From a virus, in IMG/VR virus record IMGVR_UViG_3300035698_016128, positions 1-64,000 of that record: DNA of 64,000 nt, one strand, 5' to 3'. Below are positions 4,892 through 18,406 of the stretch, piece by piece; position 1 is the stretch's first letter; the number at the start of each line of letters is the position of its first letter. The notes beneath the pieces were generated by a model. It ran no database searches. It worked only from the letters and a program-made list of their open reading frames with translations, and was not told the origin of the DNA. A program made the position numbers and the translations under genes.

Positions 4892-4896
4892 TTAAA

Positions 4897-4934
4897 CGCC
4901 CCTGTAATGCCCTAGCAGGTTCTAGGGCGGGGCG
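4897..4934. other. GC-rich hairpin just after the last plus-strand gene
   Basis: GCCCTAG-caggtt-CTAGGGC inner stem and CGCCCC/GGGGCG outer stem. Confidence 0.6.
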
Positions 4935-4952
4935 GTACACCCCTGAACGTAG

Positions 4953-4996
4953 AAAACCCCCTGAAGGTACCAAAACGGGCCTTCTAGGGGGTTTTT
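4953..4996. terminator. Bidirectional rho-independent terminator between convergent transcription units
   Basis: AAAACCCCCTGAAGG ... CCTTCTAGGGGGTTTTTT inverted repeat with an A-tract and a T-tract on either side. Confidence 0.85.
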
Positions 4997-5017
4997 TATT
5001 TCCTATTCCTGAGTGAT

Positions 5018-5263
5018 TCAGGCTGGTTCGGGTTCTTCCTTCGGAAAGTAGCTGGCACCATCAGGCACCAAGGCTCTCAGGGCCATGATATCCTCAATGG
5101 TGGGGTCACTTTCCATCTGCCACGTCTGAATAATCTGAATGGTGGCAGGTACGCCGTACTTGGCGATCAATTCGATAATGAATGTGATAAGAGCGAGAGT
5201 AGGGTCCATCGGTGTTTCTCCCTTCATATTGCTGTCAAATTTTTTTAGTTCGTCGAGTATCAT
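5018..5263 (-). CDS. Small hydrophobic protein, possibly a spanin or lysis accessory (alternative start 5209)
   Basis: ATGA overlap with the lipoprotein gene; hydrophobic segment PTLALITFIIELIA. Confidence 0.55.
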   Translation of the reverse strand: MILDELKKFDSNMKGETPMDPTLALITFIIELIAKYGVPATIQIIQTWQMESDPTIEDIMALRALVPDGASYFPKEEPEPA

Positions 5264-5634
5264 TGATTACGCCTTGCGAGAAACTTGTCGACGAGCACGG
5301 CAATATCGCCAGCCAACACGGTAATCTCAATCATGGCGTACTCAAGCATCTCTTTGTCTTGAACATCACCGCTACGCTTATAAGCTGACAGGGCATCGAC
5401 TGCCACAATGTACGAAGAGCGATACAGCACATGAATCGCCTTGATCTCTTCCACATCATCGCTATTGATGTACCCTTCTGCGTACAGGTCGGCGCTGACC
5501 TTCATTGCGCTGTCAACCATGATAGCTGATGTTTTGATGGAACTGTACGTGTTCTTTGTGAACGTGGAACAGCCAGCCAGAAGCACGAACGCTACCAGCA
5601 CAGCAACCAATACAAACAGTTTGTTTTTCCTCAC
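5260..5634 (-). CDS. Lipoprotein, possibly spanin-like
   Basis: MRKNK n-region, hydrophobic h-region and LAGC lipobox, followed by a helical body. Confidence 0.8.
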   Translation of the reverse strand: MRKNKLFVLVAVLVAFVLLAGCSTFTKNTYSSIKTSAIMVDSAMKVSADLYAEGYINSDDVEEIKAIHVLYRSSYIVAVDALSAYKRSGDVQDKEMLEYAMIEITVLAGDIAVLVDKFLARRNQ

Positions 5635-5870
5635 GGGGATACCTCCTCTGTTTTGGGTTCAACGGTAAGCTCGGTAGTACCGGCTACCAAAATGGTTTCG
5701 AGATCTTTCTTCTTCACCATACCCACTCGCATGAACCACACGACGAGTAGTGCCAGTAGCGAGTTGACACCGACAATAACACCCTCGGGTATCACCACGC
5801 CGAAGCCTTGGATGATTTGGAAGACGGCAAGCAGGATCATCGAAACAATAGTTTTCTTTCCTTCAAACAT
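5631..5870 (-). CDS. Two-TM small membrane protein, holin-like
   Basis: GAGGAG SD before MFEGKKT; two hydrophobic segments and a charged C-terminus. Confidence 0.6.
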   Translation of the reverse strand: MFEGKKTIVSMILLAVFQIIQGFGVVIPEGVIVGVNSLLALLVVWFMRVGMVKKKDLETILVAGTTELTVEPKTEEVSP

Positions 5871-5881
5871 GGCGTTTCTCC

Positions 5882-6943
5882 TCAGATGAAGTTTACATGC
5901 TCTGGCGGGAAACTCATAGCCCAAAGCATTTGGTTGTAGGTCTCGAACTTACACGGCTTGCATTCTGCCAGCCTGATACGGTTCATTGCCTTCACATGCG
6001 AATTGCTTTCCCATGCCTGTTTGAAGGACTGCTTGGCAAGGTCGCCGAACCACTGCCCTTCCTTAACAATGTTCTGACAACAAATGGACAACCTGCTGTT
6101 TGCCAGAATGTTCGCTGTGAGAAGATGCCCAAGGCACACAGGGTACGGGCGCTTATACTCCGAAGCACCCTCCTCAAAGTAGTGACCGAGGTAGTGAATC
6201 TTAAACGCATCATCCTCATACATCGAAGTGGCAAGGGCCACAGCTTCGGTTACCCTGCCACGCTCGAAATCATCTTTGCCGTATTTTGACTTCGGAATAA
6301 AGATGGGTTTGACCTGCATGTAATCAACCCCGATATCTTTGAATGTCTTCGCGGCGGCAGATAACTCACTAAGGTTATCCTTATCAATGAGGTACGAGAC
6401 ACCAATCTTACAGCCAGCGCCATCCTTGATTTTCGCCTTGGCCTTGACCAGAAATGCAAGGTAGTGCAGGACAACGACAATATCGAGCTTGGTTCCGTGC
6501 ATGCGCTTGTAGGTAGTATCGGAAATCGCATCAATGCTGACTCGAACGAATGAGCAGTTGCCCACAATGTCAAAGGCATCATCCATAGTGCGGAACAGGG
6601 TGCCGTTGGTGATCAGGCCGACGTCCATGCCAAGGCGCTTGTAGTCCTCGAATGTGTTCAGGAGGTGCGGGTTGGTCAATGGCTCACCGCCCCCAGTAAA
6701 CAAAACAGCCTTCACACCATATTCCGATAACTCTTCCGGCAACCGCCGTAAAAGATCCTTCGGCAACATAGCCTCATTCTTCTGGCGAAACGACCGGCTG
6801 TTACAATGTGGACAATTCAGGTTGCAAAGCGAACTTGGCTCAACGCTTGCAGTCACAGGTGGAGGCATCGTGCCACTTGCAATAGAAACCATTTGTGGCG
6901 TGTGGGAAAGCACCTTATACGGATTAAAAGGCCCAAGTGACAT
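5882..6943 (-). CDS. Radical SAM protein with a SPASM/twitch domain
   Basis: CNLNCPHC cluster motif, FTGGGEP, VRVSIDA, and C-terminal C...CC...CxxC. Confidence 0.92.
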   Translation of the reverse strand: MSLGPFNPYKVLSHTPQMVSIASGTMPPPVTASVEPSSLCNLNCPHCNSRSFRQKNEAMLPKDLLRRLPEELSEYGVKAVLFTGGGEPLTNPHLLNTFEDYKRLGMDVGLITNGTLFRTMDDAFDIVGNCSFVRVSIDAISDTTYKRMHGTKLDIVVVLHYLAFLVKAKAKIKDGAGCKIGVSYLIDKDNLSELSAAAKTFKDIGVDYMQVKPIFIPKSKYGKDDFERGRVTEAVALATSMYEDDAFKIHYLGHYFEEGASEYKRPYPVCLGHLLTANILANSRLSICCQNIVKEGQWFGDLAKQSFKQAWESNSHVKAMNRIRLAECKPCKFETYNQMLWAMSFPPEHVNFI

Positions 6944-6982
6944 ACGTTTCTCCCATGCTGTTTGTGATTGATAGATAGTTAT

Positions 6983-7012
6983 ATACTACCACAACCCGCT
7001 TTAATTCATCAA
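6983..7012 (-). promoter_or_regulatory. Candidate sigma70 promoter for the last radical SAM gene and the lysis-like genes
   Basis: TTGATG-18 nt-TAGTAT with an extended -10 TGTG, in an AT-rich intergenic gap. Confidence 0.5.
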
Positions 7013-7030
7013 GCAAATGAAAATTTAATA

Positions 7031-7231
7031 TTATTTTTCAGGACTTTTAAAGAAGAAGCAACTAGAATAATAAACTCTTACTGATGTACATGACGCTCTA
7101 TACTGGAGTAATTCATCTACCTTATCATGAACTATAATGGAAGCTGATACAGAATCATCTATACAAGCGCCCTTATTGGTATCGCACTTCGAAAATATAG
7201 ATTCAAATTGATTCATTATCATTCGCCCCAC
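7031..7231 (-). CDS. Possible small hypothetical protein or gene remnant
   Basis: Fills the gap on the coding strand; no recognisable motif. Confidence 0.25.
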   Translation of the reverse strand: MGRMIMNQFESIFSKCDTNKGACIDDSVSASIIVHDKVDELLQYRASCTSVRVYYSSCFFFKSPEK

Positions 7232-7782
7232 TCATACCCAAGATATTCAATCACTTCAGGAATATATATCGCCCTGACACGCTCTATCAGTTCAATATCA
7301 TCTCCGTAATATACTCTATAGTCTTTATCCCTGGAATAGACAGTGTTTATATGCGGAAGGGGAGTGGTTGGAATCGAAACTATAGAGCAAATTTTATCAT
7401 AATCTTCCTGTATTGTTTCCATCTTGCCAAGGTAGTTGACCGCCAACTTACCTTCATGCATAAAAAATATACTGTAATCATCCACTCCAGGCTTCCTGTA
7501 CTTGAAGGCATAATCCCTTAATGATAAATCCTGTGGAATTTGCTTTAGCCTCTTAACTGCAAACCAAATGGAAACAAAATGATCCCATGGGTTTCTCACA
7601 AACACAAACTTGAAATAATTATTCCAACATTCAATTCCTAAATATTCCATAGCGACATGAACTGGCATGTGGTCCCAATTGCTCAAACTACAGCCAGAAG
7701 ATTTAAGAGCCACAGCAATGCTCCGCGATGCACACTTGGAATTCCTCAAGAACATAATTTTCTTTTCATGACTGAAGACCAT
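7219..7782 (-). CDS. Sulfotransferase (Sulfotransfer_2-like)
   Basis: FLRNSKCASRSI (5'-PSB-like) and FVFVRNPWDHFVS (3'-PB-like) motifs. Confidence 0.85.
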   Translation of the reverse strand: MVFSHEKKIMFLRNSKCASRSIAVALKSSGCSLSNWDHMPVHVAMEYLGIECWNNYFKFVFVRNPWDHFVSIWFAVKRLKQIPQDLSLRDYAFKYRKPGVDDYSIFFMHEGKLAVNYLGKMETIQEDYDKICSIVSIPTTPLPHINTVYSRDKDYRVYYGDDIELIERVRAIYIPEVIEYLGYEWGE

Positions 7783-7783
7783 A

Positions 7784-8875
7784 TTAGCTCCCGTTAATTA
7801 TTGTAATGATTGATCTGGGGATTCCGTCGCCAGCCTGATTAACAGAAGGGGATATTGTATAGTTATAATCTGACAACATATCCTTAAGCTTGGACATTGT
7901 CGGGTAATACTTCTTATCGCCTGTGACGATTTTTTCATTCGTGCCGCTAGGGTGAATGCCAATCTCTATCTTAAGAGCGCCACCCGGTTTTAAAATACTC
8001 ACGAACCTTTTTATCTGCGCCTCTTGGTTGTTTAAATAATGAAATAGGCCCAACATTAAAATATGAGAAAAGAGACCTAGCCCATTTATATCATCATTTA
8101 TGTCCATTGTATAAAATCTTGCACTCTTGCAGAAGTAAATTGAGGTCTGTATTGCATTGGCAATATCAACGATTCTTCCAACATTCTCTATACCAATAGC
8201 CTCAGCGCCCCTTCTATCACATTCAACCGCAAAGAGACCAGTGTTACAGCCAATGTCTAACACATTGCACCCTGTCATGTCTTCTGGCAAGGCTAAGGCC
8301 GCAAGCTTCCTGTTACTTCTGGAAGAAGATTGTCTAGGCAGAAACTCATACTCCTGATACCATACATACGCAGGGACTACTCTCTTTATCGCCTCCTTCT
8401 TAATGATATCCTTGATGGCATCACACAGCCCGTCTAAGCCAATATCTCCAACCTCCGCGACGCTTTCGTTCAGAGTTATCCTAGTCATAAACCCAGGCAA
8501 TTTCTCAACGAAGCACACATTGGAATGCTTGGATAAAATATTTTGGTATTCAGGCTTTGTCCACAGATAGCCTTCCGTTATCACAGAGGAGTATAGATTG
8601 ACAGCAGTTTGAATTTCAGAATCAACAGCCTTATGCATTATCATTTTATCAGCATGAGGTAGCTCGTTAAGTATCGCCCCCAAATGCGAGTTATAGTTCT
8701 CACCATATCTCTCTCCAAGCACAATTAATCCCTTTCGGATAGCCTGCACTTGAACCCAATCAGTTTCGATGAGAATGGAATTCGGAAGAACACCGTTTAG
8801 ATGCTTAGACAATGTAGTCTTGCCAGCATTAGAAGCGCCCTTGACTACGATTAAATTATAAATATTCTTCTGCAT
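7784..8875 (-). CDS. Fusion of a P-loop kinase-like domain and a class I SAM-dependent methyltransferase
   Basis: N-terminal GASNAGKTT Walker A; C-terminal VLDIGCNTG motif I and LKPGG. Confidence 0.85.
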   Translation of the reverse strand: MQKNIYNLIVVKGASNAGKTTLSKHLNGVLPNSILIETDWVQVQAIRKGLIVLGERYGENYNSHLGAILNELPHADKMIMHKAVDSEIQTAVNLYSSVITEGYLWTKPEYQNILSKHSNVCFVEKLPGFMTRITLNESVAEVGDIGLDGLCDAIKDIIKKEAIKRVVPAYVWYQEYEFLPRQSSSRSNRKLAALALPEDMTGCNVLDIGCNTGLFAVECDRRGAEAIGIENVGRIVDIANAIQTSIYFCKSARFYTMDINDDINGLGLFSHILMLGLFHYLNNQEAQIKRFVSILKPGGALKIEIGIHPSGTNEKIVTGDKKYYPTMSKLKDMLSDYNYTISPSVNQAGDGIPRSIITIINGS

Positions 8876-8883
8876 TGTTTCCC

Positions 8884-10467
8884 CTAGCGTATTAAGGTGT
8901 GTTCAATTAGGTCTTTCCAAAACCTGCTATTCTTATATACATCAATGTGTTCATCATAATATTGTAAGTATCTTTTATGGCTAATGGTTGACAACATATA
9001 ATGTGCTATCGCTTGCCATGGGTAGCTTCGAATAACGTTTTGAAAATATTCTTCAGCAACATCTAGCTTGCCCATTCTCACATTTGCATTTTCTATAAAA
9101 TTAACCATGATGTTCATGTAGTATGCGTACTCTTCTATCTCCACAGGGTTAATACCCGGAGCCCGTATGTTGCACCGAGATGCCACATGGTCAGAGTAAC
9201 TATCATCCACAAAGTAATCGTTCTCCTTACATATTTCAAAAAGCCTACTTCCTGCAATTGGTATCGCTATGAATATGTATGCCCAATCAATATTCAGTTC
9301 AATTAAAAAATTAAGAGTCTCAGTTCTATGCTCATCGAGTTCTCCTGGAATCCCAATCACAATGAATACATGGATTCTCATTTTATATTTTCTTAATATT
9401 GAAACCACTTCTTTTATCTTCCTGGTAGTCAACGGCTTATCAATGACCTTTCTCAAAACATGATCTGAGCCAGACTCGATGGCAAGCACAACCACCTTAA
9501 CCCCTGCATCACTTAGTGCCATAGCGATATCATCATCTATCTTATACGCAGCAAGTCCGTTTGGAAATTCAACATGAATGCCTTTCTCTTTTATTAACTG
9601 CAATATCCTTATAGCTCTTTCTTTATTATATAGGAAATGATCATCTTCAACAATCAACAGGGTCATACCATAGTTGGTAATATAGTGATCTATTGTTTCG
9701 GCAACACGCTCGAACGACATCATTCTGACCTTCTTGCCATGGAGCCTACCGTTGGCGCAGAATACACAGTTGAAGGGACACCCCCTTGATGTGTGTATGC
9801 TCACTTCGACCTTCTTGATTGATGGGTCTTTCTCTATATAAGATCTTCCATTGTATTTTCTTATATTTATATATGAAAAATCTATTAATGGGATATCATC
9901 AATCTCATATACCATATCGTATTGGGGAATTTGTTCCTGAGCCAACGACGCCTTGGTTATCCATGCAGGACTGATAGAGGGCAGGTCTTCTATTTCAACA
10001 TCTGCCTTAAGCATCTTCCGTACTGGCATCTCGCCTTCCCCAAAACATATTGCATCAATGTCAGGGTACTCTTCAAATAACTCTTTATATAGATTTGTTG
10101 CCAACCCACCACCAACAATAATTGGAACATCAAAATATTTCTTTATCCTACTGACCATACTCATGTGGGGGAAGCTAGTATTGAACAGAGCAGATATGCA
10201 TACGTAATCAGGTTCGAACATCAACATAGCCATTACAATAGAATCAAAGACTACGCCATGCAGAGTTCCACAATGTAGATTTTCAAGGATTATCTTATTA
10301 CAATCAAAAATTTCAAACTCGCACGAATCACTCTTGCCCACATACGATATTACTGATAACGCACCATATGGCGGAGTGAGGAAATACTTCTTTTGGCCAG
10401 GACCCTTTGGCACATAGCTATCAAAGGAGCCATGAGGTGGGATTATAAATAGAATTTTTTTAGCCAA
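8884..10467 (-). CDS. Cobalamin-binding (class B) radical SAM protein
   Basis: PPYGALSV and IIVGGGLAT B12-domain motifs, GEGE, TSRGCPFNCVFC, EDDHF, IESGS. Confidence 0.92.
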   Translation of the reverse strand: MAKKILFIIPPHGSFDSYVPKGPGQKKYFLTPPYGALSVISYVGKSDSCEFEIFDCNKIILENLHCGTLHGVVFDSIVMAMLMFEPDYVCISALFNTSFPHMSMVSRIKKYFDVPIIVGGGLATNLYKELFEEYPDIDAICFGEGEMPVRKMLKADVEIEDLPSISPAWITKASLAQEQIPQYDMVYEIDDIPLIDFSYINIRKYNGRSYIEKDPSIKKVEVSIHTSRGCPFNCVFCANGRLHGKKVRMMSFERVAETIDHYITNYGMTLLIVEDDHFLYNKERAIRILQLIKEKGIHVEFPNGLAAYKIDDDIAMALSDAGVKVVVLAIESGSDHVLRKVIDKPLTTRKIKEVVSILRKYKMRIHVFIVIGIPGELDEHRTETLNFLIELNIDWAYIFIAIPIAGSRLFEICKENDYFVDDSYSDHVASRCNIRAPGINPVEIEEYAYYMNIMVNFIENANVRMGKLDVAEEYFQNVIRSYPWQAIAHYMLSTISHKRYLQYYDEHIDVYKNSRFWKDLIEHTLIR

Positions 10468-11737
10468 GGAGACTCACCCACCCTTTCAGTAATTTATCAT
10501 CTGGAAAATAACTTAGGTACTGCCGGGGACTGCCCTTGCTATGCGAACGCCATTGCAAATTTGAATTAAATAACTCTACTATATCATCATCTTTGTTTTT
10601 TTCAAATACCTTACCGTAATCGCCCAGTGATTCAATAAAAATCTTATAACCACATTCCTTATTATTGTCTAATGCCTTCCAACTTCGCTTTCGTTTTTGC
10701 CCAAGCATTAAGTTATGAAATGTGCTGTTCCAAGAAGAAATCATCTTGCCTGTATCATACAGCCTGATAATATACTTCTGCATTAACTCAATTATACTTG
10801 GTATCTTACTCTTCTCCTTATAAAGAAATTCGATATTGTGTACGTATTCCTCTTCGTTGTTACAAACAAACCTAACCAAACTTTGGAATAGTATATACTC
10901 TTCTGCCGGATTCTTCATGACAATCGGAATGATCCCTGCGGCTATTGCCTCACCCAATACCTGTTCGCAGGTTCCAAAATGATTTGGATTAAGTGGGTAG
11001 CCAAACACATCAATGATTGCAAGGTATGATTTAATATCTTTTATTACACCAGTGAATTCAAACTTAGATTCAAGCCCACGCTCTCTTACTTGTTGTTTAA
11101 TCTTCTCAGCATCACACCCGCCACCTATTATAATAAATTTAACATCCGGTATATTAATCTTGCTACAGATATCAATAAAATTTGGATGTAACTTTGAGTA
11201 ATCCAAAGTCCCTATACAACCAATATTAAACCCATCATGCGAAACTGGCTTTACATCAAGATACTCATCAACATTGCCAGTAGTCCATATTTGCCCCAAC
11301 CTTCCCTTTAACCTTTCCGGTAGCCCTATTATCTCTTTAGCCTTAAGGCTTATGGGCGAAGCAAAAACAAACATATCTGAAAACTCTATAAGCTTCTCAG
11401 AGAATACATATGGGGCATTCAGCCCAGACACGTGAGACCAAAAACACATGCGGCACTCTGGTATATCCGCAGTGGTAAGGAATTTGAATAATAGAGGATG
11501 ATTCCAAAAATGAATAATGACTATATCAGAATTTTTTATATGCTTATATATGCCAGAATAATTGTCGTTCATATTCTCATGAACTATCTTAGAATCATAC
11601 TCTTCATAATAATTATAATTCAGACACAAAATAGTATGCATATTTGTGTCATCCTTATTAATCCAATTCATTAGAACAGTGCCTATGCCACCGCCAAGAT
11701 GAACAGTAATGTGCAAAACCTTATTCGCACGTTGCAT
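10460..11737 (-). CDS. GT-B fold (GT4-like) glycosyltransferase
   Basis: VLHITVHLGGGIG N-terminus, IIIGGG, and FGTCEQVLGEAIAAG (Ex7E-like region). Confidence 0.8.
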   Translation of the reverse strand: MQRANKVLHITVHLGGGIGTVLMNWINKDDTNMHTILCLNYNYYEEYDSKIVHENMNDNYSGIYKHIKNSDIVIIHFWNHPLLFKFLTTADIPECRMCFWSHVSGLNAPYVFSEKLIEFSDMFVFASPISLKAKEIIGLPERLKGRLGQIWTTGNVDEYLDVKPVSHDGFNIGCIGTLDYSKLHPNFIDICSKINIPDVKFIIIGGGCDAEKIKQQVRERGLESKFEFTGVIKDIKSYLAIIDVFGYPLNPNHFGTCEQVLGEAIAAGIIPIVMKNPAEEYILFQSLVRFVCNNEEEYVHNIEFLYKEKSKIPSIIELMQKYIIRLYDTGKMISSWNSTFHNLMLGQKRKRSWKALDNNKECGYKIFIESLGDYGKVFEKNKDDDIVELFNSNLQWRSHSKGSPRQYLSYFPDDKLLKGWVSLLG

Positions 11738-12434
11738 GTAAGTCCACCCATCCCAGAGCTAATTCCTGATTGTCAATTCCCTTCAACTCTTTATATTTCA
11801 TGTAACGTGTGAGCGCCTCGTCAATGCCCAACCATTTGTCAGCAGGAAGGTAAACGCCAAATGGCCCCGAAGAGAACTTGGTGAACATAAAGTCTGTGCC
11901 TTTACATCTGTCCTCATGCATAGCCTGATTCACTAACTGAAAACGATTATAACCAGCCACATGAAGGTAGCTGAATATCTCATAGTAATCAAAGCGGGAT
12001 AACTCGAATGATACAAACTTTGGTCGAAAACTTTTAATATCGGCGAGCAATTGTTTGGCAACTATTATATCGTTGCCCTCTATGTCCACCTTCATATAGT
12101 ATGGTTCGCCAAAACGATATAATTCCTTCAGGGATATCGCCCGGATTAACACTTCGATTGCCGTACTGCCATCCCATGTAACTTTGTTTTTTATGCAACT
12201 GCTCCAATCTGTATTTTGAGGGTGAATGTAAAATGCCACATGCCCTTGGTTATTGGAAATTGCGTTGTTCAATAGCACGAGCCTTTCACTCAATATCTCT
12301 TTTGCGAACCTTATCCTTCCAAAATTTGCGAGATTAGGATTTGCCTCAACAGCAATTACCTTAAATCCCTTATGAAGATAATACGCAGTGTCATCGCCGT
12401 TATGGAACCCTAAATCAAAAATATATTCGCTCAT
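11721..12434 (-). CDS. FkbM-family methyltransferase
   Basis: IFDLGFHNGD, VIAVEANP and MKVDIEG motifs. Confidence 0.88.
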   Translation of the reverse strand: MSEYIFDLGFHNGDDTAYYLHKGFKVIAVEANPNLANFGRIRFAKEILSERLVLLNNAISNNQGHVAFYIHPQNTDWSSCIKNKVTWDGSTAIEVLIRAISLKELYRFGEPYYMKVDIEGNDIIVAKQLLADIKSFRPKFVSFELSRFDYYEIFSYLHVAGYNRFQLVNQAMHEDRCKGTDFMFTKFSSGPFGVYLPADKWLGIDEALTRYMKYKELKGIDNQELALGWVDLHATCE

Positions 12435-13381
12435 ATATTCAACACCGCCCCTCTGAAACCAATATTTAAAAGCTTTTCCCTGAGTACATTCTTGTGCGCC
12501 ATTGCCGTTATGACCACAGTGGCACTATCGTCAAGCGATGCAAGCACACTCTCATCGTTAACCTTCAACCCATTTACCGTAAGCGTTTGCTTATAAGGAT
12601 TATTATCAACTAAAATCTTATTTGGGAAATCAGAAAATAATTTATTAATAAACATAAACTCTCTTCCAATTCCCCAAAAACATACCTGCCTATCTTTTGA
12701 TAAAGTGTTGACTGCCTTCTCTATCTTACGAACCCCATGATCCAAATACCATTTGATGCTATTTCTGAGCCGAAAATATTTACGATCAATGGCTGGTAAT
12801 TTACAATCGGTATTTCTCTGTAGCAACACAGTCATAACAGGCATCTGCATTGCCTCGCTCATGATGGGCATGCTCCCGCCCTGCTCAACCTTCACCATCC
12901 CAAAACCATTCAGCCTCGCAAGGTACAATAGATGAAGTAAATCAAAGTGATGAATATGCTCTCTTATTATTACCCAATATGGTTTGAAGAAATCGTACTC
13001 AATATACCTTGAGGCATCAGGTGCGCCTATGCAGACATATTCATTGTCCTTATTGAAGAATGTTTCCAAAACATCTGAATGCTCAATCATCTGGTCAAAC
13101 ACACCTACTGATTTAGAATTTCCAATGAAATTTTTTATCTGCTCCTCTCTGACATGATCCATTCTCTTCTCAGAGGCATTCTGATTACAACTGGTATACT
13201 CATGCAGATAATATTCTTGAAGCTCATTGAGTTCTTCATTTATGAGATCATTAAATACATGCCCGCAGCGATCGCAACATACCAACCGCACCACATTGTA
13301 CAATAGTGAACCGTCAAACCTATCGCATGGTATCACGCATATGGTAGTAATGCTCTTTTCCTTGCATATTGGACAATTCAT
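12431..13381 (-). CDS. Methyltransferase-like protein (Zn-binding N-terminus, Rossmann-like C-terminus) lacking the SAM-binding core
   Basis: CPIC...CDRCG, MIEH, APDA...EHIHHF and WGIG...LVDNN are present; there is no LDxGxG motif I. Start placed at the ATGA overlap at 13381. Confidence 0.7.
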   Translation of the reverse strand: MNCPICKEKSITTICVIPCDRFDGSLLYNVVRLVCCDRCGHVFNDLINEELNELQEYYLHEYTSCNQNASEKRMDHVREEQIKNFIGNSKSVGVFDQMIEHSDVLETFFNKDNEYVCIGAPDASRYIEYDFFKPYWVIIREHIHHFDLLHLLYLARLNGFGMVKVEQGGSMPIMSEAMQMPVMTVLLQRNTDCKLPAIDRKYFRLRNSIKWYLDHGVRKIEKAVNTLSKDRQVCFWGIGREFMFINKLFSDFPNKILVDNNPYKQTLTVNGLKVNDESVLASLDDSATVVITAMAHKNVLREKLLNIGFRGAVLNI

Positions 13382-14346
13382 ATTTTCTCCAGAAGTCTTC
13401 CTGCAAGGGCATCTATATTCTCGGGTTGACCAGCAACTAACTGATTGCAACTCGAACACGGATTAAGAAGGTACCTGTTCCCAGCAAGCATCACTCGGCG
13501 CATACGCCTGAAGCGTTCGCTATTCCATACTTCCTTGACGCTCTTGCCAAGCACGTCCCCAATAACAAGCTTCCTGTTCCAATCAAGAAAACAGGCGCTC
13601 ACCTTGCCGTCGTGATTTATGCAGAAGGAGTAGAATATATAAGGACATACGTCTACACTTGTAAGCGGTTGCCCATACACTCCAACATCAGAATTAACTT
13701 TCACATCGTTCATCTCAAAATCATTCCAGCAATTCATGACATGCTCTATCGCAATGCCATCGGAAATAGGTTTGAATATATGAATGAACTTCTGCTGGTC
13801 TTCTTCGGAAATGACATCGCCATTTATCTTAATAAATATAGTACAATTCCCTCGGTTCTCGTAGAGATGCTGTATGTTATCCACATAACGCTGAAAATCA
13901 ATTGTAACGCCACTGAAGCGCTTGTACTGGTCAGCGGTCACCCCGTTGACGGAAACGTTAATACGGTCTATTCCTGCCCCTATCAGGTCCATATTTAACA
14001 CAGGGTTGAACAAACTTCCGTTCGTGGTGGTGTCAATGTCATCGGCCACACCTTTATCCTTAGCCTCCTTCACCATATCTGCAAAGCGGGGATTGAGAAG
14101 AGGCTCGCCAAAGGCATAAAGCCTCAGCGTTTTAATTGGAGTATCAAACTCTTGTATATCGCGCATGATCTTCTGATACAGCCGCCACTCCATGATACCC
14201 TTGCTCGGCATCTTCTTACCAAACTGAAAGCAGAACTTACACTTGAAGTTGCATACAGAGGCAGGGTCCACATTTATTACAAACGGGGTAGCCAACGGCA
14301 ACGCAGGACCAAGCGGCACTTTGCCTTCTTCGCGTATTCTTTTCAT
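13378..14346 (-). CDS. Radical SAM protein with a SPASM/twitch domain
   Basis: DPASVCNFKCKFC, FGEPLLNP, CPYIF...VSACFLDW...CSSC; ATGA-coupled start at 14346. Confidence 0.92.
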   Translation of the reverse strand: MKRIREEGKVPLGPALPLATPFVINVDPASVCNFKCKFCFQFGKKMPSKGIMEWRLYQKIMRDIQEFDTPIKTLRLYAFGEPLLNPRFADMVKEAKDKGVADDIDTTTNGSLFNPVLNMDLIGAGIDRINVSVNGVTADQYKRFSGVTIDFQRYVDNIQHLYENRGNCTIFIKINGDVISEEDQQKFIHIFKPISDGIAIEHVMNCWNDFEMNDVKVNSDVGVYGQPLTSVDVCPYIFYSFCINHDGKVSACFLDWNRKLVIGDVLGKSVKEVWNSERFRRMRRVMLAGNRYLLNPCSSCNQLVAGQPENIDALAGRLLEKI

Positions 14347-14993
14347 ATTATTTCTGGTAACTCCCAATTGGGCTTCAGGAAGGCTTCTTTTTTATTGTAC
14401 CTGCCGGGTTGAAAGAAGTTACCGAATATAAATAAATCAGGAAGTAAGACTATATCATCAGGGAATTGCCCCCTCAACCTGACAGCATAACGACCATCAT
14501 CCCATTTATGATTATTGCCAAATCTATTTTGTTTTAAAATTTCTCCTTTCACAATATACATTCCCATTCCAATATTACATACTCGAACATCTTCAATAGA
14601 AGAGATTCGTATTGGCGTCCACGGATGCGGTTCCGAATCGTCACCAGTCGGAATGCTATCGCCTCTGTAAACAGAGAACATTATTATTTTGGCAGTCTGC
14701 TCTCTTATTACATCGAAGAATTCTGGCTCATACATATCATCATCACCCATGAAACCATAATAATCATCATCAATGATTTCTTGGGTATCAGCAAAATCAT
14801 CTATTTTTTTATAGCACATGTCCGTAGGCAATAATTCATCAGTACGAACAGGGTGTATCCAATCTCTATCAAAGCGTGCTTCTGAATCGTGCCCTATGAC
14901 AGGATGCCACTCGATACCCATGGGCTCCAAATAATGAATTAGAGTCGGTATAAGATGCGTTCTAAAGAACGGAGTGATTATGTGTATTTTCAT
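14343..14993 (-). CDS. GT-A fold glycosyltransferase-like protein (paralog B)
   Basis: IHIITPFFR N-terminus and YYGFMGDDD DxD motif; tandem paralog of 15005-15658. Confidence 0.75.
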   Translation of the reverse strand: MKIHIITPFFRTHLIPTLIHYLEPMGIEWHPVIGHDSEARFDRDWIHPVRTDELLPTDMCYKKIDDFADTQEIIDDDYYGFMGDDDMYEPEFFDVIREQTAKIIMFSVYRGDSIPTGDDSEPHPWTPIRISSIEDVRVCNIGMGMYIVKGEILKQNRFGNNHKWDDGRYAVRLRGQFPDDIVLLPDLFIFGNFFQPGRYNKKEAFLKPNWELPEII

Positions 14994-15004
14994 ATGATAG
15001 TTTC

Positions 15005-15658
15005 CTAACCTATGATTTGTGGCAATTCCCATGTGGGTTTTAAAAATGCTTCCTTGTTGGTAAATCTTCCTAATTGAAAATAATTAAAAAATGAATACAT
15101 ATCTGGTAAAAGATGTATTTCATTTGGATATGTATTTCTCAGGCGCTCTATATAATGCCCATCGTTACAGGTTGCCGAATTACCGAATCTATGCTTTTTA
15201 AAAATCTCACCTTTGATTATATATTGCGATAAATGAATGTGGCCTGTTCGTATATCTTTTAATCCACTAATCTTAAGAGTGGAGCATGGGTGCTTCGTAG
15301 GCGCATTATCTCTTGGAACGCTATCGCCTCTGTACAATGAGCAAACAATTATCTTGGCAGTCTGTTCTCTTATTACATCAAAAAATCCTGGCTCATACAT
15401 ATCATCGTCACACATAAAGCAATAGTAATCGCCGTCAATGATTTCCTGAGTGTCGGCAAAATCATTAATTTTACGATAGCACATGTCCGTAGGCAATAAT
15501 TCAATAACCTTAACCGGGTGAATCCAATCTCTATCGAATGGAATATCTTCCTTCGGCGCAACTACGGGGTGCCACTCGATACCCATAGGTTCTAAATGTT
15601 GAATAAGGGTATTCACCAAGTGTGTCCTGTAGAAAGGAGTGATTATGTGAATCTTCAT
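15005..15658 (-). CDS. GT-A fold glycosyltransferase-like protein (paralog A)
   Basis: IHIITPFYR and YYCFMCDDD DxD motif. Confidence 0.75.
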   Translation of the reverse strand: MKIHIITPFYRTHLVNTLIQHLEPMGIEWHPVVAPKEDIPFDRDWIHPVKVIELLPTDMCYRKINDFADTQEIIDGDYYCFMCDDDMYEPGFFDVIREQTAKIIVCSLYRGDSVPRDNAPTKHPCSTLKISGLKDIRTGHIHLSQYIIKGEIFKKHRFGNSATCNDGHYIERLRNTYPNEIHLLPDMYSFFNYFQLGRFTNKEAFLKPTWELPQIIG

Positions 15659-15660
15659 TA

Positions 15661-16398
15661 TTACCCTCTTTTATTAAAGGCATTATCGTGATACACATAT
15701 GTGACAGGCTCCATATAAGGCAGAAGGCCGAACTTCTTTCTTATCAGGCCGCACCACCAACTGTCGCTACCATAATGGTTACTGTGTTCTCCAATTTTAA
15801 TGTGATTGATAAGTTCTCGCCACATGACACAGCACGAGAAATTATTATAGCAACACTCAACGGGGGTAGTGGGAATGCGGGGGTCAGTGTATGGGACATG
15901 CAGGAAGTCATGAAGTTTTTCTCTGGAATTTTCCTTTTTCTTTCCAGCCCAGTAAACAGTTTTATTTGCATACAACACGAGGGGGGTTATAGAACTATAC
16001 GTAGGATTTGCCTTCAATCCATCCACAAGCTTCTGTAGCCAATCTGGGTTTTCCTCTGGTATGTACGCATCATCGTTGAATAGGCAAATGAATTGCCCAT
16101 CGGATACCCTGAAGGCCCGCATGATATTTGCACCATACAGCAATTGGGCATCTCCAAAAACAACTTTTATCTTTTCTGATTGGATACTTTCGAGGTATGC
16201 CTTTAGCTCGTCATTGGGGCTGGCATCATCAGAAATGCATATTTCAAAATCAGGGTAGGATGTATAATTCAAGATACTCTCTATACATCTCTTTGCTTCA
16301 TTTGGAAGATTGAAGGTGGGAATTAAAATTGAGACCTTACCAGCGACACCAGACTTAGCTACGTCAACTTCTTCAAACATTACAACCTCCTTATACAT
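15661..16398 (-). CDS. GT2-family glycosyltransferase
   Basis: VSILIPTFN, ISDDAS, ICLFNDD and SDSWWC motifs. Confidence 0.9.
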   Translation of the reverse strand: MYKEVVMFEEVDVAKSGVAGKVSILIPTFNLPNEAKRCIESILNYTSYPDFEICISDDASPNDELKAYLESIQSEKIKVVFGDAQLLYGANIMRAFRVSDGQFICLFNDDAYIPEENPDWLQKLVDGLKANPTYSSITPLVLYANKTVYWAGKKKENSREKLHDFLHVPYTDPRIPTTPVECCYNNFSCCVMWRELINHIKIGEHSNHYGSDSWWCGLIRKKFGLLPYMEPVTYVYHDNAFNKRG

Positions 16399-16410
16399 TT
16401 GAGGTTTATT

Positions 16411-17352
16411 CTACGCCTTATTACTATTGGCGTATTTCTTTACCTGCCGGAGGATGACCCGGATGCCGGTTTCCTCTTCAACCTTCGTTCGCATTGAGTC
16501 AACAAGCGCCTGACTGCTGGCACCGTATGGGTTGAGAGTTGCCTCCTTGCACCCAAGTTTGCCAAGCTTCGCAAGCAATTCTATGTTGACATTCGTTATA
16601 GCATCATTGAACGCAAAACTCAAACCATGTTCGCTCAACGCAGTGGCGATACTTATGGCCCGTTGGCGGTCAAAACAGAAGGCTTCATCCCCAAAATAAA
16701 AACTCTTAATGCCATATGCCTTGACCACGTTGATGACTTCGTTCATGATGCGCTTCACACCGAATGTCTTCAGCCCCGGACAAAGCCACGTGTTGCGGTA
16801 GGGGCTTCCACGGGTGGACATAATCATCACAGCCTTCTTCTCATTGAGCTTCCGGTTGTAGCTTCCCATGTCCACAAGGTGACGGCTCGGAAGGGGCAGT
16901 TCATTCAGGTTCCGTACTTCAGCTTTGTACACGTTCTTTGCTTCCGAAGTGCGGTTGTGAAAAGAGTCCTGCAGGAACAGGCGCATTGCATTCTCAGCTT
17001 CTCCGCGGATGACCACATCAAACAGATCGTCGTTGGCAAATGTGGGAACATCCTTGCTTGGGCCTGAGCCACAAACAATGATGCTACAGTTTTTATTTAC
17101 CTCACGACACTGCTGTGCAATTTCTCTTGCAAGGGCGAGCCGCTTCCTGTCCACGTACATCACGTACAGAACGCAGTGACCGAAGCTCCACATGTTTCGC
17201 TCGATGCCATTGAGGTCGTTGACTCTGACCTTCAGGCCATGCTTCTCAAGCCGGGGGGCAAGCTGGAGCAGAAACATAGGGGGATCAAGTCGCCTACGGA
17301 ATACATTTGAAAATGGCAGATTGATAAGTTCTACTCTCATGGCGTGCCTCAC
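16411..17352 (-). CDS. Degenerate cobalamin-binding radical SAM homolog (cluster motif lost, barrel truncated)
   Basis: PPMFLLQLA, RGEAE, LPLPSRHL and FYFGDEAF align with class B radical SAM landmarks, but STRGSPYRNTWLC replaces TSRGCPxxCxFC. Confidence 0.8.
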   Translation of the reverse strand: MRHAMRVELINLPFSNVFRRRLDPPMFLLQLAPRLEKHGLKVRVNDLNGIERNMWSFGHCVLYVMYVDRKRLALAREIAQQCREVNKNCSIIVCGSGPSKDVPTFANDDLFDVVIRGEAENAMRLFLQDSFHNRTSEAKNVYKAEVRNLNELPLPSRHLVDMGSYNRKLNEKKAVMIMSTRGSPYRNTWLCPGLKTFGVKRIMNEVINVVKAYGIKSFYFGDEAFCFDRQRAISIATALSEHGLSFAFNDAITNVNIELLAKLGKLGCKEATLNPYGASSQALVDSMRTKVEEETGIRVILRQVKKYANSNKA

Positions 17353-17633
17353 ACATTTACGATTTTTTGTGCTCCTTTTCTCTTCGTACTCTTGCCAAGA
17401 ATCTTGGCAGTTTCCTTAGCCGCACCAACGAAGCTCACATTTACGACATCCCCCAAACGCAACACAACATCTTCCCTCATGTTAATTGCATTCTTCTTTA
17501 TGGCACCACTTGGCAAAGTAAGATCATAGGTACCATCCGCATTCTTGGAATATATGGTAGCATCCGTGATGTTATCAATCTGTTCACTCTTCGAAACTTC
17601 ACGGATAAGTCCTAACAGGTTAGTCTGTGGCAT
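17349..17633 (-). CDS. Small tail-associated protein (OB-fold-like)
   Basis: ATIYSKNADGTYDLTL...LGDVVNV pattern; coupled to its neighbours. Confidence 0.55.
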   Translation of the reverse strand: MPQTNLLGLIREVSKSEQIDNITDATIYSKNADGTYDLTLPSGAIKKNAINMREDVVLRLGDVVNVSFVGAAKETAKILGKSTKRKGAQKIVNV

Positions 17634-17944
17634 TATTCGCCCTCCTCATGTTGTTCAATGCCAACAAAGGAGAAAACACCTTGCCGTGAAATATTGATCC
17701 TATGCTTCGTTATGATATGATTGCCTGCAATATTTAGGGCGCTTTCGTTTACTGAAGCCACAGAAGCAATGTCTGTGCTGTCCTTAAATGGCGCACGCAC
17801 TTCCCGCCCCCTCACCTTGTACCACTTGCTGTCGATGAAGTGCTTCCCACGCTGTACGGCAATATGCTCGGTGACAATGAGCGGATCACTGATCTCTGAG
17901 GCTTCCTTATCGCCAAGGCCACGAATACAAATAATATCAATCAT
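17633..17944 (-). CDS. Small tail-tip-associated protein
   Basis: DIICIRGLGDK...ISDPLI motif resembles a prophage tail-region family recalled from memory; GGGGA SD. Confidence 0.55.
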   Translation of the reverse strand: MIDIICIRGLGDKEASEISDPLIVTEHIAVQRGKHFIDSKWYKVRGREVRAPFKDSTDIASVASVNESALNIAGNHIITKHRINISRQGVFSFVGIEQHEEGE

Positions 17945-17959
17945 GACATCCCCTGATAA

Positions 17960-18385
17960 TTATTCGGGAGGTAGATTCTTCCCCTTGCCCGTAGACGGAT
18001 TAAGCCTATAGCCAATACCGCAACTCGGGCACCTGTAGATAAACTCCTTGCCGCCACAACAAGGCTTCTTCTTTACGAGGTCAATTTTACACCTGCTGCA
18101 CTTGACTCCAATAGAACCACCGGCCTCTCCAGCTTCTTGAGGTTGCTCAGTCTCCCCCCCAATAACATCCATCTTTTCTGGAACCTTACTGAACATTCTT
18201 TGAATGCCACCCCACATGGCATTACACCAATGCGAAACAGAAACTACATTCTCGAGATCAATGGCTGGGATATTCTCCCTATCCTTTATTTCGAAGGAGA
18301 TGCTACTCAAATAGTTTCCTGTGAACTCAAACTTGACTTTGAAAAAATCATCCTCAATGTTCCTCACAACCTTTTCATCGGCCAT
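17960..18385 (-). CDS. Hypothetical protein with a C-terminal Zn-ribbon (CxxC..CCG..CPxCG)
   Basis: CSRC...PCCGG...RCPSCG; AGGAG SD. Confidence 0.7.
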   Translation of the reverse strand: MADEKVVRNIEDDFFKVKFEFTGNYLSSISFEIKDRENIPAIDLENVVSVSHWCNAMWGGIQRMFSKVPEKMDVIGGETEQPQEAGEAGGSIGVKCSRCKIDLVKKKPCCGGKEFIYRCPSCGIGYRLNPSTGKGKNLPPE

Positions 18386-18406
18386 ACCTTAACTCCTTTT
18401 TATAAT

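Follow-up and report, generated by a model that had tools for sequence, protein, structure and literature searches.

A probable glycan-synthesis and tailoring island behind the tail genes of an uncultured salt-lake phage

Results and Discussion

The minus-strand region 5882-17352 is, in our confident assessment, a glycan-synthesis and tailoring island. Its product is almost certainly a methylated deoxy-sugar decoration, which is probably also sulfated, and we tentatively infer that it is attached to one or more of the virion proteins as the particle assembles. The window, that is the whole 64,000-nucleotide stretch analysed here, makes up the opening 64 kb of the 124-kb IMG/VR record IMGVR_UViG_3300035698_016128, which comes from an uncultured, siphovirus-type salt-lake phage; the carrier is apparently a large, lytic tailed phage.

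Twelve tightly packed genes occupy the region, in which three genes are degenerate (16411-17340, 12431-13381 and 7031-7216). The intact genes specify a GT2, two GT-A-fold paralogues, a GT4, an FkbM methyltransferase, a P-loop/methyltransferase fusion and a sulfotransferase, together with radical SAM enzymes, two with SPASM/twitch-type C-terminal domains and one of cobalamin type. Gene identities come from Pfam, NCBIfam and PHROGs searches, which returned the sugar and tailoring classes that the original prediction had placed on the structural-gene strand, a kinase excepted. Hydropathy analysis found no transmembrane segment in any island enzyme, all of which are soluble, and Pfam and NCBIfam detected no flippase, polymerase, lipid-carrier or initiating phosphoglycosyltransferase gene among them.

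A conserved core with swapped accessories

Seven cassette loci were compared: the window; L025, L027 and L031, which are IMG/VR contigs from other metagenomes with the same gene order after the same tail genes; and L028, L029 and L033, in which the core has other flanking genes. The GT-A-like transferase, the twitch radical SAM enzyme and the GT4 were present in 7/7 loci, a TcaB9-like methyltransferase in 6/7, and a MycE-type sugar O-methyltransferase in five, plus a remnant in the window. This lineage further has a GT2 and a radical-SAM pseudoenzyme that is conserved, and the window phage has its own FkbM, cobalamin radical SAM, P-loop/methyltransferase fusion, sulfotransferase and second radical SAM genes. 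Both core methyltransferases (TcaB9-type and MycE-type) have decayed in the window phage, and its product should therefore differ from that of its relatives. The accessories of the relatives are glycan decorators, L025 carrying a polysaccharide pyruvyl transferase and two sulfotransferases. G004, a complete phage genome with terminal repeats, has a GDP-mannose 4,6-dehydratase and an epimerase/reductase inside its cassette, and a more distant relative has, at the same position, a different glycan island with a GT9 (heptosyltransferase-like), a teichoic-acid-type TagF-like enzyme and GT2s.

The recurrence of this gene order in three contigs from other metagenomes disposes of an assembly chimera with host LPS genes. 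L025, L027 and L031 also keep a glycosyltransferase and radical SAM cassette behind their tail genes, the check on related phages that had been proposed. The view that the cluster is wired into the virion genes holds for this lineage and fails for L028, where the core lies between primase and terminase; in L033 it adjoins an RNA ligase. The core proteins had no match in 50,697 GenBank phage records. The twitch radical SAM gene adjoins a methyltransferase and a GT4 gene both in phages and in a bacterial locus, L051, where the three stand side by side in an NDP-6-deoxyhexose cluster with a nucleotidyltransferase, a 4,6-dehydratase, a 3,5-epimerase, a TylCIII-type methyltransferase and a reductase; further neighbours are a CmcI-type rhamnosyl O-methyltransferase and a GT2-GT9 fusion. 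The island is horizontally mobile.

Position and operon structure

The same strand carries, upstream of the island, the genes for terminase, portal, major head protein, tape measure and tail proteins; the island sits at the distal end of this virion operon, between tail and lysis genes. Directly upstream of the cluster is a gene for a small conserved protein of 94 aa (17349-17633, minus strand), which belongs to the flank and is not an enzyme. It had been taken for the last tail gene, of which only a plausible OB-fold baseplate-type protein can be retained: it has no Pfam or PHROG match, and an Atlas search returned viral hypotheticals, with DUF2577 and a baseplate-protein fold as leads only. 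Orthologues in L025, L027 and L031 (48-61% identity) always lie just ahead of the pseudoenzyme gene. The presumed ATGA overlap of the first cluster gene with it, at 17349-17352, reads GTGA; the start used by the relatives corresponds to ATG 17340, 8 nt past the stop, with GAGG as ribosome-binding site. The other predicted ATGA overlaps are present (14343-14346, 13378-13381 and 12431-12434), and the remaining island junctions are 1-12 nt gaps or short overlaps. The sole real intergenic gap in the cluster is 6944-7030, ahead of the last radical SAM gene.

Across 4500-19000, promoter-like and terminator-like sites were no more frequent than in shuffled sequence. The one strong terminator is intrinsic and lies on the minus strand at 4952-4995 (hairpin -24.2 kcal/mol, z -4.3, then UUUUCU); it marks the end of the long leftward operon and faces convergent plus-strand genes. 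As predicted, no terminator was found from the tail genes through the cluster before that site. A weak sigma-70-like match in the spacer 6944-7030 was read by eye and is absent from the report of the promoter scan; the cluster may contain internal promoters. The operon ends in three small minus-strand genes (5018-5873) for a two-TM holin-like protein, a lipoprotein with a LAGC lipobox and an 81-aa protein, whose translations and hydropathy indicate probable lysis or envelope functions. A PHROG scan of the holin-like protein and the lipoprotein gave no match, and the lipoprotein and the 81-aa protein are kept behind the cassette in L025 and L031.

The enzymes of the island

All of the genes described below lie on the minus strand. 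The GT2-family glycosyltransferase (15661-16398; PF00535, E 1.6e-23) has orthologues of 47-50% identity in L025 and L031. It is followed by two tandem GT-A-fold paralogues, copy a (15005-15658), which has a DDD motif, and copy b (14343-14993), which is 64% identical to copy a; L027, L028 and L029 likewise have two copies. Copy a has no Pfam, PHROG or NCBIfam match and was assigned from its AF2 model (pLDDT 94) and Foldseek, the top matches being AvpGT, the WrtF fucosyltransferase and SpsA (E 1e-9 to 1e-6). The family is unnamed, comprises 434 clusters and is almost phage-only: a search of 185,579 prokaryote species genomes gave a single match, on a 1.75-kb contig, and there were none in GenBank phages. 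In several metagenome proteins GT-A-like and GT2-type domains are fused. The core GT4-family enzyme (GT-B fold; 10460-11737; PF00534, E 4e-15) shows 35-64% identity across all cassette loci and 38% in bacterial L051.

The first gene of the cluster encodes a B12-binding/radical-SAM-like pseudoenzyme (16411-17340), with weak B12-binding and AprD4/HpnJ-type matches, a truncated barrel and S-P-Y-R-x-T-W-x-C in place of CxxxCxxC. The Cys triad is missing too from the orthologues in L025, L027 and L031 (50-57% identity), and this common loss indicates that the gene is kept under selection. The core radical SAM enzyme (13378-14346; PF04055 and PF13186), with a SPASM/twitch-type auxiliary-cluster domain, is probably a sugar oxidase/dehydrogenase; its best solved relatives are BtrN (4e-13) and DesII, and CxxxCxxC and six further Cys are kept in at least 30 of 31 homologues. 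Two further radical SAM enzymes are accessory. The cobalamin-type (class B) enzyme (8884-10467; PF02310 and PF04055) has an intact CxxxCxxC, AprD4 as its best solved relative (4e-16) and P- and C-methyltransferase families as its best NCBIfam matches, all under cut-off; its L029 homologue carries an intein. The second SPASM-type enzyme (5882-6943; PF04055, E 2e-15) scores a sub-threshold 20.1 bits for PF13186 (cut-off 21.5 bits) and has an orthologue of 37% identity in L027. The GC of its gene is 0.50, compared with 0.36-0.45 in the inner genes.

By alignment and AF2/Foldseek, 12431-13381 is a homologue of the NDP-hexose C-3-methyltransferases (TcaB9/KijD1/MtmC/TylCIII type). The top 18 Foldseek matches of its model are exclusively MtmC, KijD1 and TcaB9 (E ~1e-13), hhalign against a bona fide Methyltransf_13/14 protein gave 95.9%, and the L025 orthologue carries Methyltransf_23/11. 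Approximately 80 residues of the SAM-binding core are gone relative to the 396-402-aa orthologues, and judged from its sequence the protein is probably not a working methyltransferase. The original prediction had recognised no nucleotide-sugar synthesis genes; there is indeed no canonical one in the window, but the 12431-13381 family acts on NDP-sugars.

The accessory FkbM-family methyltransferase (11721-12434; PF05050, E 4e-15) has a homologue in L033 at 47% identity and none in L025, L027 and L031. What had been called a kinase is simply a Walker-A P-loop domain fused to an accessory class I SAM methyltransferase (7784-8875; Methyltransf_23/25 at residues 188-303), and this N-terminal domain gives weak matches only, to PRK06762 and nicotinamide riboside kinase. 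The P-loop is also the sole basis for describing the glycan as phosphorylated. In L027 the orthologue of the fusion (48% identity) lies directly ahead of the second SPASM-type radical SAM gene. The accessory sulfotransferase (7219-7782) scores 28.9 bits for PF03567 (cut-off 22) and 1.7e-11 for a galactose-3-O-sulfotransferase PHROG, and has two distant copies in L025. Finally, alignment shows that 7031-7216, of 61 codons, is what is left of a ~188-aa MycE/TylE-type deoxysugar O-methyltransferase: both termini of the orthologues in L027, L028, L029, L031 and L033 are retained and the core is deleted. Profile matches of this family are to MycE (7.7e-24) and demethylmacrocin O-methyltransferase (1.2e-15).

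A proposed pathway

The solved relatives of the unusual enzymes (BtrN, DesII, AprD4, TcaB9, KijD1, MtmC, MycE and TylE) all act on sugars, and four island proteins are fold- or sequence-level relatives of antibiotic NDP-deoxysugar enzymes. TcaB9, KijD1, MtmC and TylCIII are C-3 methyltransferases, and DesII and BtrN carry out radical SAM sugar oxidation. By analogy, these relatives suggest keto-sugar formation, C-methylation and later O-methylation. They are, however, distant, with 11-15% identity for the TcaB9-type matches and scores under every NCBIfam cut-off; moreover, the island's TcaB9-like copy lacks the SAM-binding core and there is no aglycone pathway.

In the pathway that we propose, host nucleotide-sugars, probably of 6-deoxyhexose types, would be the input. 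A radical SAM enzyme would oxidise the sugar, possibly at the NDP-sugar stage, to yield the keto group that a TcaB9-type enzyme requires for C-methylation; in the window phage C-methylation has probably been lost, or taken over by the cobalamin radical SAM enzyme. Four transferases would build up a short oligosaccharide on the acceptor itself, in the cytoplasm and with no lipid carrier involved, and the methyltransferases and sulfotransferase would then decorate it. Some of the chemistry probably takes place on nucleotide-sugars before transfer, in addition to tailoring of the attached glycan.

The acceptor

A cytoplasmic, phage-specific acceptor is favoured by the lack of transmembrane segments and of flippase, polymerase or initiating phosphoglycosyltransferase, by the near confinement of the GT-A-like family to phage contigs, and by the failure to find a tyrosine integrase in five related records. 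A lack of transmembrane segments is also typical, however, of peripheral GT2 and GT4 enzymes whose substrates are lipid-linked intermediates. A virion-protein acceptor is favoured by how closely the island is joined to the tail genes. Against it are the cores without virion neighbours in L028 and L033, and the bacterial relatives, GT9, TagF-like enzyme and pyruvyl transferase, which are typical of cell-envelope polymers; no Ser/Thr-rich acceptor tract was identified in a virion protein. Were virion proteins the acceptor, the particle would gain a variable, negatively charged, methylated sugar coat.

It is also possible, though less likely, that the soluble transferases instead modify lipid- or wall-linked glycans of the host during infection (O-antigen, capsule, teichoic acid or S-layer glycan), whether to block superinfection or to keep progeny from sticking to debris. 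The radical SAM/methyltransferase/GT4 trio in the polysaccharide-type cluster of L051, the envelope-type enzymes of the relatives and the lipoprotein gene behind the cassette are consistent with this, and similar pelagimyophage islands have been read in this way (PMC7029224). However, the absence of integrase from the five records argues against lysogenic conversion, and a site at the end of the virion operon, ahead of a holin-like gene, gives the cell surface hardly any time to turn over. Moreover, Pfam and hydropathy found no Gtr-type or Wzx/Wzy-type membrane component, and the GT-A-like transferase of every cassette belongs to a family almost absent from bacterial genomes.

The transferases might also act on the phage DNA, where they would extend and tailor a sugar carried by hydroxymethyl-pyrimidines. 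A thymidylate-synthase-like gene lies at ~111.6 kb of the same genome and the GT-A-like protein is structurally closest to a nucleoside glycosyltransferase, but the cluster is ~95 kb from that gene region and the bacterial counterpart sits in an NDP-sugar/polysaccharide cluster. Sulfated or C-methylated DNA sugars are not known. Published phage DNA glycan hypermodification clusters have, like the island, several glycosyltransferases, related to LPS/teichoic-acid enzymes and including DDD-motif GT-A enzymes, and can lie close to structural genes; their anchor is either a C5-methyltransferase paired with a TET-like dioxygenase or a thymidylate-synthase-like enzyme (Pyle et al., bioRxiv 10.1101/2023.12.21.572611). 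By contrast, searches of four cassette-bearing contigs (G002, G004, G006 and G007), one of them complete, gave no thymidylate-synthase-like, C5-methyltransferase or TET/JBP match, the TET search having no positive control. With no recognised hydroxymethyl-base route in these contigs, DNA modification, an alternative in the original prediction, is very unlikely for the conserved core.

A diffusible aminoglycoside-like or nucleoside-type glycoside made during infection is more improbable still. BtrN, AprD4, DesII, MycE and TcaB9 all come from antibiotic pathways, in which GT4 enzymes also occur, but the solved relatives are whichever sugar-tailoring enzymes were crystallised, four transferases favour an oligosaccharide, and the window contains no cyclitol synthase, aminotransferase, PKS or NRPS by Pfam and NCBIfam, and no exporter. 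Least credible is a RiPP-type pathway in which SPASM-type enzymes cross-link or methylate a precursor peptide encoded by 7031-7216: radical SAM enzymes of class B or with a SPASM domain often serve as RiPP maturases, several RiPP families are among the weak NCBIfam matches and the 61-aa ORF contains Cys and precedes the second SPASM-type gene, but the first radical SAM enzyme resembles DesII and the twitch domain of BtrN, the neighbours are all sugar enzymes, and neither a RiPP recognition element nor a protease or transporter was detected. Against the ORF as a precursor stands its alignment to MycE-type orthologues, of which it joins the two ends.

Relation to known systems

The modification of virion proteins that we favour has a parallel in chlorovirus PBCV-1, in which A064R combines two rhamnosyltransferase domains with a 2-O-methyltransferase for capsid glycosylation. 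In PBCV-1 the major capsid protein receives its methylated glycan, which contains 6-deoxyhexose, from cytoplasmic machinery that uses no lipid carrier. Virus-encoded cytoplasmic machinery, a methylated deoxyhexose glycan and the lack of a lipid carrier are proposed from the genes here; PBCV-1, however, is a eukaryotic giant virus without radical SAM chemistry.

Virion glycosylation is described for mycobacteriophages Che8, Corndog and Myrna, whose soluble glycosyltransferases modify capsid and tail-tube proteins in the cytoplasm (Freeman et al. 2023, as cited in PMC12619734 and PMC11256854). According to these citing texts, the mycobacteriophage cassettes are smaller (~two transferases) and include neither a radical SAM enzyme nor a sulfotransferase or pseudoenzyme. 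They are unrelated in sequence to the island, in keeping with its lack of core matches in GenBank phages.

Tail-adjacent phage glycan islands are already known from the pelagimyophage literature. The host-recognition cluster islands of pelagimyophages and cyanomyophages are hypervariable, lie beside tail/tail-fibre genes and hold several glycosyltransferases and swappable radical SAM cassettes, with content varying among close relatives; their carriers are T4-like myoviruses, and the authors prefer modification of the host O-chain (Zaragoza-Solas et al. 2020, PMC7029224). Both are tail-adjacent blocks of aquatic phages that combine glycosyltransferases with radical SAM enzymes, swap accessories and have a predicted function. 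In contrast, the carrier here is a siphovirus-type salt-lake phage, and its island has a defined core module for which a bacterial counterpart and relatives of the enzymes have been identified.

Genome setting and layout of the cluster

The window opens a 124-kb IMG/VR virus record (estimated completeness 75%), of which it covers the initial 64 kb, and parts of the same sequence are present in contigs from several salt-lake metagenomes. Its minus strand forms one long virion operon, which encodes the large terminase (58364-60211), the portal (56275-58377), the head protease and major head protein (40733-41659), the tape measure (30827-35074) and tail proteins down to ~17349. Recombination genes on the plus strand (SbcC-like and RuvC-like; 1-4900) converge on this operon, which is closed by a strong hairpin and U-run at ~4952-4995 (-24.2 kcal/mol, z -4.3). 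No tyrosine integrase was found in the record or in four related records.

The stretch at 5882-17352 on the virion strand is occupied by 12 genes and one remnant. Pfam, NCBIfam and PHROGs bear out the classes first assigned from the sequence alone, namely glycosyltransferases, radical SAM (rSAM) enzymes, methyltransferases and a sulfotransferase. Neighbouring genes overlap or stand no more than 12 nt apart, the sole exception being an 87-nt spacer at 6944-7030. The original prediction joined the cluster to the last tail gene through an ATGA overlap at 17349-17352; the sequence there is GTGA, the likely start of the first cluster gene is the ATG at 17340, and the preceding gene encodes a 94-aa product that is not a proven tail protein. 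A consensus promoter and terminator scan returned site counts at chance level. Inner genes have a GC content of 36-45%, against 50% in the first gene, the last rSAM gene and the head genes, and this fits a swappable insert. In Logan contigs from four salt-lake DNA runs the stretch is covered only by pieces shorter than 600 nt at low depth, which do not bridge the junctions.

Radical SAM enzymes and a conserved pseudoenzyme

Three cluster proteins combine a PF04055 match (cut-off 29.5 bits) with an intact CxxxCxxC motif, which would hold the SAM-cleaving [4Fe-4S] cluster, and are thus predicted to be active rSAM enzymes. The first (13378-14346, minus strand; 60.1 bits, CNFKCKFC) retains this motif in 31/31 homologs. 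It belongs to the SPASM/twitch group (PF13186, 52.5 bits against a cut-off of 21.5), with six further conserved cysteines, and its C-terminal domain, which would bind one or two auxiliary clusters, matches the twitch domain of BtrN (4e-13); BtrN and DesII are its nearest solved relatives. Against the named NCBIfam equivalogs it scored below every cut-off, including that of N_Twi_rSAM (60.6 vs 170). The second (8884-10467, minus strand; 81.1 bits, CPFNCVFC) is of the cobalamin type, carrying a B12-binding domain (PF02310, 48.1 bits) in addition to PF04055. All of its scores to named NCBIfam families fall far under the cut-offs (best 125 vs 575), and its best solved relative is AprD4, a dehydratase rather than a methylase. 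The third (5882-6943, minus strand; 57.7 bits, CNLNCPHC) has a SPASM match just under the cut-off (20.1 vs 21.5 bits).

The first gene of the cluster (16411-17340, minus strand) encodes a B12/rSAM-like protein in which CxxxCxxC is replaced by S-P-Y-R-N-T-W-L-C. The cysteine triad is missing and PF04055 does not match, and it is therefore not counted as an rSAM enzyme. Since loss of the triad is common to three orthologs at 50-57% identity, we regard it as a maintained pseudoenzyme.

Variants of the cobalamin rSAM gene were also seen. One Logan contig of run X1 (depth ~2) joins 8552 to 10297 via 32 other letters; this single contig may represent a population variant without most of the gene. 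Elsewhere, the homolog at L029:12808-15282 (824 aa), in a relative's cassette, is split by an intein that contains an HNH endonuclease domain.

Glycosyltransferases

Two glycosyltransferases were assigned by Pfam, a GT2 enzyme at 15661-16398 (PF00535, 83.9 bits; cut-off 23.3) and a GT4 enzyme at 10460-11737 (PF00534, 56.2 bits; cut-off 26.4), both on the minus strand. Between them lie tandem paralogs (15005-15658 and 14343-14993, minus strand) that have no match in any sequence-family library. An AlphaFold (AF2) model built from 16 homologs reached a pLDDT of 94, and Foldseek aligned it with probability 1.00 to AvpGT, WrtF, SpsA and GlcAT, the best being AvpGT, the fucosyltransferase WrtF and SpsA. 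D84 and D85 are invariant within a DDD/DDN motif. The model thus predicts a GT-A glycosyltransferase fold with a DxD-type motif for both paralogs.

This GT-A-like family comprises 434 clusters at 50% identity. Neither it nor the first rSAM enzyme has a match among 50,697 GenBank phage records, and 185,579 prokaryote species genomes yielded a single GT-A-like member, carried by a MAG contig of 1.75 kb. Fusions to GT2-type or other transferase domains occur in several metagenome members; the extra domains of long fusions had been considered as acceptor-binding and turned out to be further transferase domains. Searched by sequence against the PDB, neither the GT-A profile nor the truncated methyltransferase nor the P-loop domain had a significant match.

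Methyltransferases, sulfotransferase and P-loop fusion

The protein at 12431-13381 (minus strand) consists of a Zn-ribbon and a C-terminal Rossmann-like domain and has no Pfam match. Its phage orthologs are ~80 residues longer and possess a class I SAM methyltransferase core, with matches to generic methyltransferase models only. The family profile matched a bona fide Methyltransf_13/14 C-methyltransferase at 95.9%, and the top 18 Foldseek matches of the model were all NDP-sugar C-3-methyltransferases (MtmC, KijD1, TcaB9; E ~1e-13). By the fold of its N- and C-terminal parts it is best described as a degenerate homolog of the NDP-hexose C-3-methyltransferases, rather than a functional member, as the SAM-binding core is gone.

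A 61-codon ORF at 7031-7216 (minus strand) fuses the N- and C-terminal ends of a protein whose full version (~188 aa) is intact in five other cassettes, and the profile of that family matches the deoxysugar O-methyltransferases MycE (7.7e-24) and a TylE-type enzyme. The ORF was also considered as a cysteine-rich RiPP precursor, an idea rejected on its identity as a methyltransferase remnant.

Three further minus-strand genes complete the tailoring set. An FkbM methyltransferase (11721-12434) was recognised by Pfam. The predicted sulfotransferase (7219-7782) matches PF03567 (28.9 bits, cut-off 22; model positions 6-208 of 252) and PHROG 3347 (1.7e-11), and inspection by eye suggests a putative PAPS-binding loop, N-S-K-C-A-S-R-S, near its N-terminus. 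The gene at 7784-8875 encodes a P-loop domain (Walker A GASNAGKT) fused to a class I methyltransferase. Of the kinase originally proposed, only the N-terminal P-loop domain stands; it matches only PRK06762 hypotheticals (E 2e-5) and nicotinamide riboside kinase (E 0.07).

A mobile core with changing accessories

Viral contigs searched with one protein at a time, namely the B12-rSAM enzyme, a 674-aa tail protein and the GT-A-like protein, yielded no match. Unlike these searches, an alignment query of the GT-A-like family retrieved 20 loci from IMG/VR, which were compared by tblastn and all-against-all clustering; homolog neighbourhoods were drawn from IMG/VR and GTDB loci only. The tail genes of the window are present in L025, L027 and L031, with L026 showing the layout of L027 over a shorter stretch. 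The order in L025, L027 and L031 is small proteins, pseudoenzyme, GT2, GT-A-like, rSAM, methyltransferase and GT4. The same core lies under other flanks in L028, L029 (with identical matches in L030) and L033 (likewise L032). The GT-A-like gene (often in two copies), the rSAM gene and GT4 occur in 7/7 loci, the TcaB9-like methyltransferase in six of the seven, and the MycE-like O-methyltransferase in five, plus the remnant in the window.

Around this core the accessories differ. L025 has two sulfotransferases and a polysaccharide pyruvyl transferase, L027 a GT9-like enzyme, an AdoMet decarboxylase and an HNH endonuclease, and L029 an intein-bearing B12-rSAM enzyme. The complete, terminally redundant contig G004 (L033) adds GDP-mannose 4,6-dehydratase, an epimerase/reductase, further GT4s and FkbM. 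One check proposed at the outset was whether related phages keep a GT+rSAM cassette behind their tail genes, and this holds for L025, L027 and L031; the flanks are others in L029 and L033, and in L028 the cassette sits between primase and large terminase. The placement in L028 shows the core to be a mobile module, and its position behind tail genes is therefore a property of the lineage of the window.

In G408, a more distant relative whose major head protein is 65% identical, a different glycan island lies behind the tail genes (L054:6792-15875; G408:C1:26792-35875). It encodes GT9, GT2, HNH, a TagF-like CDP-glycerol glycerophosphotransferase and two more GT2s, and none of the core genes was found in it.

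A bacterial counterpart

Homologs of the twitch rSAM enzyme number more than 1,200, cellular ones at ~50% identity among them, and a homolog is present in 5 of the 401 sampled genomes of one bacterial phylum. At L051, one such bacterial locus, the rSAM, TcaB9-like methyltransferase and GT4 genes are adjacent and arranged as in the phages. On their flanks are genes for a sugar-phosphate nucleotidyltransferase, a 4,6-dehydratase, a 3,5-epimerase, a canonical TylCIII-type C-methyltransferase and a reductase, as well as a CmcI-type rhamnosyl O-methyltransferase and a GT2-GT9 fusion. This gene set relates the phage module to part of a bacterial pathway for methylated 6-deoxyhexose glycans.

At L052, a second bacterial locus with an rSAM homolog, the longest ORF (2353-3960) combines PemK/MazF-like toxin and DegT-type sugar aminotransferase domains and may be two genes merged by ORF calling.

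Proposed pathway and acceptor

The enzyme folds and families, the intact motifs of the three rSAM enzymes, the decay of three genes and the division into core and accessories are direct observations, and we propose the following pathway alongside them. Host nucleotide-sugars would serve as donors. The twitch rSAM, whose nearest solved relatives are BtrN and DesII, would oxidise a sugar hydroxyl, supplying the sugar keto group that C-methylation by TcaB9-type enzymes depends on. GT4 and the other transferases would then assemble an oligosaccharide on a cytoplasmic acceptor, to be decorated by the O-methyltransferases and the sulfotransferase, and in relatives also by the pyruvyl transferase. 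Both core methyltransferases are broken in the window phage, and the FkbM and cobalamin rSAM genes lie exactly between the broken TcaB9-like gene and GT4; we read this arrangement as a probable replacement of methylation chemistry.

Our best guess for the acceptor, held tentatively and at slightly under even chances, is the virion proteins. This is based on the soluble enzymes (no transmembrane segments were found in any cluster enzyme), the absence of lipid-carrier machinery, the presence in each cassette of a phage-only transferase, the lytic lifestyle and, in the lineage of the window, coupling to tail and lysis genes. No initiating phosphoglycosyltransferase, no flippase or ABC transporter and no polymerase or ligase was found among the cluster genes, and a lipid-carrier (Wzx/Wzy or ABC) pathway is thus not represented among them.

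Remodelling of the host envelope is a serious rival, if the less probable of the two: the island's bacterial relatives, like several of its accessories, are enzymes of envelope type, and the core does not have virion genes as neighbours in every phage. Glycosylation of DNA is very unlikely. The genome of the window does contain a thymidylate-synthase-like gene at 111.6 kb, but this source of hydroxymethyl-pyrimidine is ~95 kb from the cluster, and four other cassette-bearing contigs (G002, the complete G004, G006 and G007) have no thymidylate-synthase-like, C5-methyltransferase or TET/JBP match, the TET search having had no positive control; a hydroxymethyl-pyrimidine source also occurs in G408. 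Small-molecule and RiPP readings would require scaffold genes or a precursor, which the cluster lacks.

With virion proteins as the acceptor, a bolder joint reading can be formulated, which we consider improbable as a whole. The twitch rSAM and TcaB9-like methyltransferase would form an undescribed route to branched-chain or keto sugars from ordinary host NDP-sugars, using radical oxidation instead of a 4,6-dehydratase. Together with the phage-only GT-A family, they would coat virion proteins in a fast-diversifying methylated, sulfated or pyruvylated glycan, a 'serotype locus' of the particles, and the conserved pseudoenzyme would be an adaptor recognising the acceptor protein of the lineage.

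Relation to known systems

The role we propose for the island is deduced from its genes, and islands of this kind are already known in marine myophages: pelagimyophages carry glycosyltransferases and swappable rSAM cassettes beside tail-fibre genes, with function untested there (PMC7029224). In mycobacteriophages virion glycosylation is established, according to two citing papers (PMC12619734, PMC11256854); among GenBank phage records no sequence homolog of the GT-A-like protein or the first rSAM enzyme was found. What is new here is a defined core with a counterpart in bacteria, the pairing of the rSAM and TcaB9-like enzymes, a GT-A family without a name, and the documented gene decay and accessory turnover.

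Several of these can be taken forward as testable units: a module of three constant genes and two near-constant methyltransferases, with its bacterial counterpart; a GT-A family of more than 400 clusters; and the pair of twitch rSAM and TcaB9-like methyltransferase. If the product is on the virion, tailed phages beyond the actinobacteriophages would possess complex, fast-evolving sugar coats made via radical chemistry. Such a coat would matter for how stable phages are in brine, how hosts and grazers recognise them and how particles are typed.

Other genes in and around the cassettes

Within the cassette of L027 are an S-adenosylmethionine decarboxylase (L027:9254-9793) and an HNH/AP2 homing-endonuclease-like gene (L027:10694-11311). 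In the head-gene region of the window, a 2104-aa protein (49365-55679) has faint fibre-type PHROG matches only. Upstream of the cluster, a 141-aa protein at 17960-18385 with a cysteine-rich, zinc-ribbon-like tail (CSRC...CCGG...CPSCG) is conserved in three relatives. Lastly, a lipoprotein at 5260-5634 with an LAGC lipobox and no family match may act as a spanin or block receptors; it is kept after the cassette in L025 and L031, together with an 81-aa gene.
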